From Escherichia phage fd: a stretch of 6,408 bases of DNA. Below, in pieces: positions 1-6,408 of the stretch. Location: sequence record NC_025824.1; one strand, 5' to 3'. Position 1 is the first letter of the stretch, and every line of letters starts with the position of its first letter. Under the pieces are notes generated by a model. That model had not been told where the DNA came from, searched no databases, and saw nothing but the letters and a program-made list of their open reading frames with translations. The position numbers and the translations under genes were made by a program.

Positions 1-831
1 AACGCTACTACCATTAGTAGAATTGATGCCACCTTTTCAGCTCGCGCCCCAAATGAAAATATAGCTAAACAGGTTATTGACCATTTGCGAAATGTATCTA
101 ATGGTCAAACTAAATCTACTCGTTCGCAGAATTGGGAATCAACTGTTACATGGAATGAAACTTCCAGACACCGTACTTTAGTTGCATATTTAAAACATGT
201 TGAACTACAGCACCAGATTCAGCAATTAAGCTCTAAGCCATCCGCAAAAATGACCTCTTATCAAAAGGAGCAATTAAAGGTACTGTCTAATCCTGACCTG
301 TTGGAATTTGCTTCCGGTCTGGTTCGCTTTGAGGCTCGAATTGAAACGCGATATTTGAAGTCTTTCGGGCTTCCTCTTAATCTTTTTGATGCAATTCGCT
401 TTGCTTCTGACTATAATAGACAGGGTAAAGACCTGATTTTTGATTTATGGTCATTCTCGTTTTCTGAACTGTTTAAAGCATTTGAGGGGGATTCAATGAA
501 TATTTATGACGATTCCGCAGTATTGGACGCTATCCAGTCTAAACATTTTACAATTACCCCCTCTGGCAAAACTTCCTTTGCAAAAGCCTCTCGCTATTTT
601 GGTTTCTATCGTCGTCTGGTTAATGAGGGTTATGATAGTGTTGCTCTTACCATGCCTCGTAATTCCTTTTGGCGTTATGTATCTGCATTAGTTGAGTGTG
701 GTATTCCTAAATCTCAATTGATGAATCTTTCCACCTGTAATAATGTTGTTCCGTTAGTTCGTTTTATTAACGTAGATTTTTCCTCCCAACGTCCTGACTG
801 GTATAATGAGCCAGTTCTTAAAATCGCATAA
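1..831 (+). CDS. II: Replication initiation endonuclease gpII, 3' portion (CDS wraps across the window ends; 5' portion at 6007..6408)
   Basis: Open frame in phase 1 from base 1 to the TAA at 829..831. The ORF track's 85..831 is the same frame begun at an internal TTG. Frame is continuous with 6007..6408 if the window is circular, giving 1233 nt = 410 aa, the known size of Ff gpII. Sequence recognised as Ff gene II. Confidence 0.93.
   Translation, partial: NATTISRIDATFSARAPNENIAKQVIDHLRNVSNGQTKSTRSQNWESTVTWNETSRHRTLVAYLKHVELQHQIQQLSSKPSAKMTSYQKEQLKVLSNPDLLEFASGLVRFEARIETRYLKSFGLPLNLFDAIRFASDYNRQGKDLIFDLWSFSFSELFKAFEGDSMNIYDDSAVLDAIQSKHFTITPSGKTSFAKASRYFGFYRRLVNEGYDSVALTMPRNSFWRYVSALVECGIPKSQLMNLSTCNNVVPLVRFINVDFSSQRPDWYNEPVLKIA
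496..831 (+). CDS. X: gpX, in-frame internal restart within gene II (identical to the C-terminal 111 aa of gpII); replication regulator
   Basis: ATG at 496..498 is in the gene II frame and shares its stop at 829..831 (336 nt, 111 aa). Product begins MNIYDDSAVLDAIQSK. Established Ff gene X architecture. Confidence 0.85.
   Translation: MNIYDDSAVLDAIQSKHFTITPSGKTSFAKASRYFGFYRRLVNEGYDSVALTMPRNSFWRYVSALVECGIPKSQLMNLSTCNNVVPLVRFINVDFSSQRPDWYNEPVLKIA
799..807 (+). promoter_or_regulatory. Candidate extended -10 promoter element (TGgTATAAT) upstream of gene V
   Basis: TG at 799..800 and TATAAT at 802..807, about 35 nt upstream of the gene V ATG. No good -35 hexamer seen. Ff phages are known to have a promoter in front of gene V, but the exact placement here is my inference. 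Confidence 0.35.
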
Positions 832-842
832 GGTAATTCAAA

Positions 843-1106
843 ATGATTAAAGTTGAAATTAAACCGTCTCAAGCGCAATTTACTACCCGTTCTGGTGTTT
901 CTCGTCAGGGCAAGCCTTATTCACTGAATGAGCAGCTTTGTTACGTTGATTTGGGTAATGAATATCCGGTGCTTGTCAAGATTACTCTCGACGAAGGTCA
1001 GCCAGCGTATGCGCCTGGTCTGTACACCGTGCATCTGTCCTCGTTCAAAGTTGGTCAGTTCGGTTCTCTTATGATTGACCGTCTGCGCCTCGTTCCGGCT
1101 AAGTAA
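843..1106 (+). CDS. V: gpV, single-stranded DNA-binding protein (87 aa)
   Basis: ORF 843..1106, product MIKVEIKPSQAQFTTRSGVSRQGKPYSLNEQLCYVDLGNEY..., recognised as Ff gene V protein. Shine-Dalgarno-like AAGGT at 830..834. Confidence 0.97.
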   Translation: MIKVEIKPSQAQFTTRSGVSRQGKPYSLNEQLCYVDLGNEYPVLVKITLDEGQPAYAPGLYTVHLSSFKVGQFGSLMIDRLRLVPAK

Positions 1107-1107
1107 C

Positions 1108-1209
1108 ATGGAGCAGGTCGCGGATTTCGACACAATTTATCAGGCGATGATACAAATCTCCGTTGTACTTTGTTTCGCGCTTGGTATAATCGCTGGGGGT
1201 CAAAGATGA
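1108..1209 (+). CDS. VII: gpVII, minor coat protein at the virion tip that emerges first (33 aa)
   Basis: ATG at 1108, one base after the gene V stop (TAA 1104..1106). Translates to MEQVADFDTIYQAMIQISVVLCFALGIIAGGQR, stop TGA at 1207..1209. Too short for the ORF track; recognised as Ff gene VII. Confidence 0.9.
   Translation: MEQVADFDTIYQAMIQISVVLCFALGIIAGGQR
1163..1190 (+). promoter_or_regulatory. Candidate sigma70 promoter inside gene VII, driving gene IX/VIII transcription
   Basis: TTGTAC at 1163..1168, 16-nt spacer, perfect TATAAT at 1185..1190. Ff phages are known to have a strong promoter upstream of gene VIII; assigning it to these bases is inference from the motif. Confidence 0.5.
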
Positions 1210-1304
1210 GTGTTTTAGTGTATTCTTTCGCCTCTTTCGTTTTAGGTTGGTGCCTTCGTAGTGGCATTACGTATTTTACCCGTTTAATGGAAACTTCCTC
1301 ATGA
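1206..1304 (+). CDS. IX: gpIX, minor coat protein at the same virion tip as gpVII (32 aa)
   Basis: ATG at 1206..1208 overlaps the gene VII stop as ATGA. Translates to MSVLVYSFASFVLGWCLRSGITYFTRLMETSS, stop TGA at 1302..1304. Too short for the ORF track; recognised as Ff gene IX. Confidence 0.9.
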   Translation: MSVLVYSFASFVLGWCLRSGITYFTRLMETSS

Positions 1305-3196: not shown

Positions 3197-4243
3197 ATGG
3201 CTGTTTATTTTGTAACTGGCAAATTAGGCTCTGGAAAGACGCTCGTTAGCGTTGGTAAGATTCAGGATAAAATTGTAGCTGGGTGCAAAATAGCAACTAA
3301 TCTTGATTTAAGGCTTCAAAACCTCCCGCAAGTCGGGAGGTTCGCTAAAACGCCTCGCGTTCTTAGAATACCGGATAAGCCTTCTATTTCTGATTTGCTT
3401 GCTATTGGTCGTGGTAATGATTCCTACGACGAAAATAAAAACGGTTTGCTTGTTCTTGATGAATGCGGTACTTGGTTTAATACCCGTTCATGGAATGACA
3501 AGGAAAGACAGCCGATTATTGATTGGTTTCTTCATGCTCGTAAATTGGGATGGGATATTATTTTTCTTGTTCAGGATTTATCTATTGTTGATAAACAGGC
3601 GCGTTCTGCATTAGCTGAACACGTTGTTTATTGTCGCCGTCTGGACAGAATTACTTTACCCTTTGTCGGCACTTTATATTCTCTTGTTACTGGCTCAAAA
3701 ATGCCTCTGCCTAAATTACATGTTGGTGTTGTTAAATATGGTGATTCTCAATTAAGCCCTACTGTTGAGCGTTGGCTTTATACTGGTAAGAATTTATATA
3801 ACGCATATGACACTAAACAGGCTTTTTCCAGTAATTATGATTCAGGTGTTTATTCATATTTAACCCCTTATTTATCACACGGTCGGTATTTCAAACCATT
3901 AAATTTAGGTCAGAAGATGAAATTAACTAAAATATATTTGAAAAAGTTTTCTCGCGTTCTTTGTCTTGCGATAGGATTTGCATCAGCATTTACATATAGT
4001 TATATAACCCAACCTAAGCCGGAGGTTAAAAAGGTAGTCTCTCAGACCTATGATTTTGATAAATTCACTATTGACTCTTCTCAGCGTCTTAATCTAAGCT
4101 ATCGCTATGTTTTCAAGGATTCTAAGGGAAAATTAATTAATAGCGACGATTTACAGAAGCAAGGTTATTCCATCACATATATTGATTTATGTACTGTTTC
4201 AATTAAAAAAGGTAATTCAAATGAAATTGTTAAATGTAATTAA
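3197..4243 (+). CDS. I: gpI, inner-membrane assembly ATPase (348 aa) with an N-terminal Walker A motif
   Basis: ORF 3197..4243. P-loop GKLGSGKT at residues 8-15 (about 3218..3241). Recognised as Ff gene I. Confidence 0.96.
   Translation: MAVYFVTGKLGSGKTLVSVGKIQDKIVAGCKIATNLDLRLQNLPQVGRFAKTPRVLRIPDKPSISDLLAIGRGNDSYDENKNGLLVLDECGTWFNTRSWNDKERQPIIDWFLHARKLGWDIIFLVQDLSIVDKQARSALAEHVVYCRRLDRITLPFVGTLYSLVTGSKMPLPKLHVGVVKYGDSQLSPTVERWLYTGKNLYNAYDTKQAFSSNYDSGVYSYLTPYLSHGRYFKPLNLGQKMKLTKIYLKKFSRVLCLAIGFASAFTYSYITQPKPEVKKVVSQTYDFDKFTIDSSQRLNLSYRYVFKDSKGKLINSDDLQKQGYSITYIDLCTVSIKKGNSNEIVKCN
3917..4243 (+). CDS. XI: gpXI, in-frame internal restart within gene I (C-terminal 108 aa of gpI); assembly protein
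   Basis: ATG at 3917..3919 is in the gene I frame and shares its stop. Product begins MKLTKIYLKKFSRVLCLAIGFASAF... and is 108 aa, the known size of gpXI. Confidence 0.8.
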   Translation: MKLTKIYLKKFSRVLCLAIGFASAFTYSYITQPKPEVKKVVSQTYDFDKFTIDSSQRLNLSYRYVFKDSKGKLINSDDLQKQGYSITYIDLCTVSIKKGNSNEIVKCN

Positions 4244-5963: not shown

Positions 5964-6006
5964 CATCCTGTTTTTGGGGCTTTTCTGATTATCAACCGGG
6001 GTACAT

Positions 6007-6408
6007 ATGATTGACATGCTAGTTTTACGATTACCGTTCATCGATTCTCTTGTTTGCTCCAGACTTTCAGGTAATGACCTGATAGCCTTTGTAGACCTCT
6101 CAAAAATAGCTACCCTCTCCGGCATGAATTTATCAGCTAGAACGGTTGAATATCATATTGACGGTGATTTGACTGTCTCCGGCCTTTCTCACCCGTTTGA
6201 ATCTTTGCCTACTCATTACTCCGGCATTGCATTTAAAATATATGAGGGTTCTAAAAATTTTTATCCCTGCGTTGAAATTAAGGCTTCACCAGCAAAAGTA
6301 TTACAGGGTCATAATGTTTTTGGTACAACCGATTTAGCTTTATGCTCTGAGGCTTTATTGCTTAATTTTGCTAACTCTCTGCCTTGCTTGTACGATTTAT
6401 TGGATGTT
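6007..6408 (+). CDS. II: Replication initiation endonuclease gpII, 5' portion (runs off the window end and continues in phase at 1..831)
   Basis: ATG at 6007, open through 6408 (402 nt = 134 codons, no stop). Translates to MIDMLVLRLPFIDSLVCSRLSGNDLIAFVDLSKIATLSGMNLSARTVEYHIDGDLTVSG... Recognised as the gpII N-terminus. Confidence 0.92.
   Translation, partial: MIDMLVLRLPFIDSLVCSRLSGNDLIAFVDLSKIATLSGMNLSARTVEYHIDGDLTVSGLSHPFESLPTHYSGIAFKIYEGSKNFYPCVEIKASPAKVLQGHNVFGTTDLALCSEALLLNFANSLPCLYDLLDV

Follow-up and report, generated by a model that had tools for sequence, protein, structure and literature searches.

Gene X of the Ff filamentous phages f1, M13 and fd, encoding the protein pX (G10P), is an already known gene and has been a feature of the Ff genetic map since the early 1980s. 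Within this system RF replication is driven by pII, which nicks the origin, while pX, an essential protein, antagonises or limits pII-driven RF replication and is needed for the accumulation of single strands; translation of both pII and pX is repressed by the gene V protein. Independent initiation and essentiality of gene X were reportedly shown by experiment in 1981 and 1984, the later study being said to have changed the gene X ATG to an amber codon in a suppressor host. Outside the Ff group the closest described systems are those of the N-pilus phage IKe and the Erwinia PEar phages. Their gene X (907..1272 in IKe) starts inside gene II, in frame, at an ATG aligned with the fd one, and an RBS is annotated together with a putative internal promoter. 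IKe gene X differs from that of fd in the length of its product (121 amino acids), in a gpII identity of 60% and in a weaker Shine-Dalgarno (SD) sequence (AAGGT, -3.4 to -3.9 kcal/mol).

Internal in-frame starts have also been described in a number of rolling-circle and plasmid initiator genes. These include phiX174 A/A*, pIGRK RepR/RepR', RK2 TrfA-44/33 and RSF1010 RepB/RepB' (PMC6854812), in which, as with gpX, the N-terminally truncated product modulates replication, and the same source describes pII and pX as two in-frame Rep proteins of f1/M13/fd. These pairs belong to unrelated protein families and offer an analogy of mechanism, not of membership; a further difference is that phiX174 A* is still active as a nuclease, the catalytic domain being absent from gpX. 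A second nested gene of the same design lies within the Ff genome itself: gene XI, inside gene I (3197-4243), starts at ATG 3917 (Met241 of pI) and encodes the C-terminal 108 amino acids (3917-4243). It differs from gene X in belonging to the assembly module rather than to replication and in a much weaker SD sequence (AGGT before the ATG, -3.1 kcal/mol).

Gene X within gene II of the fd genome

The window, by which we mean the whole 6408 nt stretch of DNA analysed, is the complete genome of an Ff filamentous phage of the fd type, linearised at the customary position 1. Over its first 1600 nt it shares 99.6% identity with phages Copypasta and FfIris (each 6408 nt) and approximately 98% identity with f1 and M13, and all ten classical Ff genes were found in their usual order. 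Gene II spans the linearisation point, and joined translation from ATG 6007 gives a gpII of 410 amino acids. Because gene II crosses this point the ORF listing gives only a TTG-started fragment at 85..831, in keeping with the remark in the initial annotation that gene X would be invisible to an ORF track. The two parts of gene II and the gene nested within it are as follows:

6007..6408, + strand: 5' part of gene II, codons 1-134, continuing at position 1
1..831, + strand: 3' part of gene II, codons 135-410 and stop
496..831, + strand: gene X CDS, 336 nt comprising 111 codons and TAA, in the gene II frame
496..498, + strand: gene X initiator ATG, gpII codon Met300

Genes II and X have the stop codon in common (TAA, 829-831). 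It had been proposed from the sequence that ATG 496, in the gene II frame, opens a nested gene X whose product equals the C-terminal 111 amino acids of gpII. Translation bears this out, the 111 amino acids of gpX being identical to gpII residues 300-410 (Met300 to Ala410), and the proposal matches both the CDS X annotated at exactly 496..831 in the curated records of f1 (J02448) and M13 (V00604) and the IKe RefSeq note, according to which pX arises by initiation at an internal codon of gene II in the same frame. Searches with gpX returned PF05155 (G2P_X_C) over residues 20-108 (E 2.9e-36, 124.3 bits against a cut-off of 25) and TIGR01629 (rep_II_X) at profile positions 297-405 (124.3 bits against a cut-off of 29). 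Since coordinates, sequence, family models and annotation coincide, the locus is gene X of the Ff phages and not a mere lookalike, and we are highly confident that 496..831 is the Ff gene X, nested and independently initiated. Coordinates, frame, length, SD and upstream sequence are identical throughout f1, M13 and fd, and nothing of substance sets the gene apart from that of f1 or M13.

Independent initiation at ATG 496

An in-frame ATG at 496 is not special by itself because gene II contains seven of them, ATG 496 and six others. Independent initiation at this codon is nevertheless strongly supported in silico by the strength of its SD sequence, by the codons in which that sequence is written, by the conservation of the start codon and by its position at a domain boundary. 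The SD sequence lies within the coding sequence of gene II:

484..490, + strand: Shine-Dalgarno sequence GAGGGGG, gpII codons Glu296-Gly297 and the first base of Asp298

A gap of 5 nt separates it from ATG 496 (8 nt for its GAGG core), and its predicted pairing with the 3' end of the 16S rRNA (-11.3 kcal/mol) ranks first among the 185 ATG and GTG codons considered genome-wide on the + strand; the start of gene II itself reaches -6.3 by the same scoring. Within gene II the site ranks second of 402 codon positions. The native sequence falls in the strongest class of the 768 synonymous encodings of Ala-Phe-Glu-Gly-Asp-Ser, with a codon-usage-weighted probability of 0.015 for an SD at least as strong, and it makes use of the rare glycine codon GGG, which accounts for only 6% of the Gly codons in the genome. 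The weakest synonymous version, with GAA GGC GAC in place of GAG GGG GAT, has a predicted pairing of -4.4 kcal/mol.

To assess the start codon across the II/X family we aligned 15 phage gene II homologues with 29-60% identity to fd, a set made up of Ff, IKe, Erwinia PEar1, the Dulem viruses, Pseudomonas 42-1, 97-1 and NEU2023, Acinetobacter M02, blackswan219-1 and D_HF5_61. The Met300 column is ATG in 15/15; it holds the only invariant Met and is among the 30 invariant of 531 alignment columns, the columns flanking it being conserved at only 30-70%. Each genome carries a G-rich SD-like element 6-9 nt upstream of the aligned ATG, which falls within the best 2-21% of the gene in question (Fisher-combined p-value of the SD ranks 3.5e-5, which ignores shared ancestry and has qualitative value only). 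The comparison was extended to 85 homologues from the databases, taken from 746 matches and 43-66% identical. Met occupies the column in 84 of them, and an initiator codon is available in 85/85: the single non-Met, in an Arsenophonus prophage (contig DAYVGI010000284.1), is a Val whose GTG codon can itself serve as initiator. AAGGGG lies 7 nt in front of this GTG, and two codons before it there is also an ATG. The f1, M13 and fd sequences differ at 3 positions in 171 nt, none of them within 423-510, which is too little variation for a synonymous-constraint test.

Gene X is annotated only in the Ff, IKe and PEar records, 11 of the 14 related phage records examined lacking the annotation. An in-frame ATG at the Met300 column with an SD-like element 6-9 nt upstream and no annotated gene X is found in Dulem viruses 52, 57, 60, 62, 63 and 65, and the same ATG and SD-like element, again with gene X unannotated, in Pseudomonas 42-1, 97-1 and NEU2023, Acinetobacter M02, blackswan219-1 and D_HF5_61. 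The predicted nested products in the Dulem, Pseudomonas, Acinetobacter M02, blackswan219-1 and D_HF5_61 phages are 114-138 amino acids in length. With a start codon kept in 85/85 homologues, a nested X cistron seems to be universal in the II/X family. The signature at this locus combines an invariant start codon, standing alone in a disordered linker between two domains, with an upstream SD written in disfavoured codons. It leads us to suspect an unannotated X cistron in many II/X-family genes of phage and prophage records. Gene X offers genome scans a clean positive control, a nested in-frame cistron that is beyond the reach of ORF callers yet recognisable from sequence alone.

The domain boundary was apparent from both profile searches and modelling. 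Pfam divides gpII into Phage_CRI (residues 1-274) and G2P_X_C (residues 319-407), and Met300 sits between the two domains. In an AlphaFold2 model of the protein (pLDDT 85.3, pTM 0.73) the pLDDT drops below 50 in only two segments, one of which, residues 297-303, includes Met300. Starting in this inter-domain gap and low-pLDDT segment, gpX comprises a flexible linker tail and the whole C-terminal helical domain. The invariant N-domain residues H62, E65, G101-H102-N103, Y197 and K199 all precede Met300 and gpX therefore lacks them. The second low-confidence segment covers gpX residues 82-86 (gpII 380-391; about 739-753 in the window). The last ~35 residues common to gpX and gpII are predicted to be mostly non-helical yet include the invariant P385, F394, Q397, Y402 and P405, and in the model this stretch may be an interaction tail.

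A Foldseek search with the gpII N-domain (residues 1-296) matched RepD/RepDE, plasmid rolling-circle initiators of the Rep_trans type (4cwe, 4cij; E 1e-4 to 5e-4), with TM scores of only 0.25-0.39 and a high rmsd; the matching part is N-terminal to Met300 and absent from gpX. The model also matches TBP-like folds, likewise with low TM scores. A label of HUH nuclease for the N-domain was dropped as the fold search points weakly to Rep_trans-type initiators, and the modelled fold weakly suggests a Rep_trans-like instead of an HUH architecture. A sequence search returned no PDB relative, and the model structure gives no clue to how pX antagonises pII.

Two accounts of the 111-amino acid species dispense with initiation at ATG 496. 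It could be a proteolysis product of gpII cleaved in the flexible inter-domain linker, residues 297-303 being predicted to be disordered and plausibly accessible to proteases. Cleavage leaves unexplained, however, why this very column always holds a start codon, with GTG as the sole substitution, and why it is preceded at the correct spacing by the best SD in the genome, written with a rare codon; the curated annotation and notes also specify internal initiation, and we consider proteolysis very improbable. Alternatively ATG 496 could be an ordinary internal Met, as the six other in-frame ATGs of gene II might suggest, and gene X an annotation convention with no separate product. The SD, conservation and domain-boundary evidence are all contrary to this, as are the titles of papers on the regulation of the gene X protein, and we give this account almost no credence.

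A putative internal promoter for gene X

The initial annotation had pointed to a TATAAT upstream of gene X as the possible -10 of a gene X promoter for which no matching -35 hexamer could be found. Its coordinates proved exact, and the search for a -35 again yielded no hexamer with at least 4/6 matches at a spacing of 16-18 bp. The elements considered are:

412..417, + strand: candidate -10 TATAAT, gpII codons Tyr272-Asn273
389..394, + strand: best -35 candidate, ATGCAA, weak, 3/6 matches to TTGACA with a 17-bp spacer
423..425, + strand: predicted start of transcription, GGG located 6-8 nt past the -10 and placed from the sequence

TATAAT occurs three times on the + strand of the window, at 412 (84 nt upstream of gene X), 802-807 (41 nt upstream of gene V) and 1185-1190 (116 nt upstream of gene VIII). 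Between 3.6 and 3.9 occurrences are expected and the number is not above chance, so the count is not suggestive; only the placement of the sites is. Each of the three has a poor -35 (≤3/6) and G residues at the expected +1. A TGn extended -10 accompanies the gene V and gene VIII sites; at the gene X site, which lacks one, a TG is present one base out of register. Because the TATAAT sites of genes V and VIII share the poor -35, the absence of a good one at 412 does not argue against a promoter. A consensus promoter scan did not call the 412 site; the sites at 802 and 1185 went likewise unreported, and the scan was set aside as uninformative for promoters of this TATAAT/poor -35 class. With a rough sigma-70-like PWM of our own the 412 site ranks second of 1197 gene II positions. 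All three + strand TATAAT sites are situated within the first 1200 nt of the 6408-nt genome.

In classical in vitro mapping, promoters with a G start were assigned to about 0.06, 0.12 and 0.18 map units. Transcripts beginning ~7 nt past each TATAAT would start at 424/6408 = 0.066, 814/6408 = 0.127 and 1197/6408 = 0.187, and the computed positions agree with the mapped ones. The levels of pX have reportedly been attributed to a promoter for a smaller mRNA.

TATAAT 412-417 is kept in fd, f1 and M13, and the stretch 423-510 is base-for-base identical in all three. In IKe the homologous codons read GATAAT/AATTAT (Asp-Asn-Tyr against Asp-Tyr-Asn in fd), and it is this element, at 817-825, that truly corresponds in position to the fd TATAAT, whereas the putative promoter of the IKe record (849-877) is nearer to the ATG than that of fd. 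The IKe sequence also has a TTGATA 17 bp upstream of AATTAT. Beyond IKe and PEar, -10-like elements in distant relatives gave no consistent signal. The putative leader (423-560) showed nothing unusual in its RNA structure (z = -0.41), and Rfam returned no matches anywhere in the window. From the sequence and placement of the site, TATAAT 412-417 is probably the -10 of an internal gene X promoter and is treated here as putative.

Under this reading RNA polymerase would start near 423-425 at one of the phage's promoters that pair a consensus -10 with a poor -35. The shorter mRNA would lack the gene II start, leaving ribosomes only the strong SD of gene X (GAGGGGG in gene II codons 296-298) on which to load; they would initiate at AUG 496 and read the gene II frame to the shared stop. 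Ribosomes elongating on full-length gene II mRNA would suppress initiation at the X site, an interference said to have been reported in 2007, and a separate mRNA would matter for this reason; most gpX would probably come from the shorter mRNA. The product, an inter-domain linker tail and the whole G2P_X_C domain, lacks the N-terminal nicking/joining domain (invariant Y197 and K199) and would counteract or limit pII. The transcript would continue through genes V, VII, IX and VIII to an intrinsic terminator:

1538-1559: intrinsic terminator directly after gene VIII, strong, with a 9-bp stem followed by a T-run

This terminator closes the frequently transcribed region that the gene X transcript would enter. 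In recoding or refactoring gene II of M13 or fd, positions 484-498 and probably 412-417 should be kept, as otherwise the dosage of pX, and hence the yield of ssDNA, changes.

A real gene X could also do without a promoter of its own, ribosomes entering internally on full-length or RNase E-processed gene II mRNA and TATAAT being mere codons for Tyr272-Asn273. The gene X SD is strong enough for such internal recruitment, the 412 site is missing both an acceptable -35 and a TGn, the number of TATAAT sites equals chance expectation and relatives beyond IKe have no conserved -10 at the homologous site. Set against this are the location of the three + strand TATAAT sites just upstream of genes X, V and VIII, each followed by a G-run at +1, and the second rank of the 412 site among 1197 positions in gene II. 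The reported promoter for a smaller mRNA and the reported ribosome interference speak against it as well. The title of Kokoska & Steege 1998 states that separate mRNAs are required. On balance we regard initiation of gene X without its own promoter as unlikely and retain the internal promoter as the favoured reading.

G-runs and a candidate gene V protein operator

Runs of at least four G are rare, six being present on the + strand. Of four such runs, at 486-490, 1195-1199, 5976-5979 and 5998-6001, three constitute the SD sequences of genes X, IX and II with a spacing of 5-6 nt, and the fourth lies in the gene II leader where it is flanked by U-runs. By analogy with this U-flanked G4 run of the gene II leader (CUGUUUUUGGGGCUUUU, 5968-5984), the G-run of the gene X SD (UUUGAGGGGGAUU, 481-493) may double as a candidate translational operator for the gene V protein. 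The combined proposal, of a gpV operator at the gene X SD together with an X cistron that is universal but mostly unannotated in the II/X family, is a tentative one which we consider possible but rather doubtful. If true, one element would encode Glu-Gly of gpII, recruit the ribosomes for gpX and receive repression by gpV. The gene II and gene X leaders both have CUGUUU upstream of their G-runs, a likeness that may bear on how the gene V protein represses the two genes.
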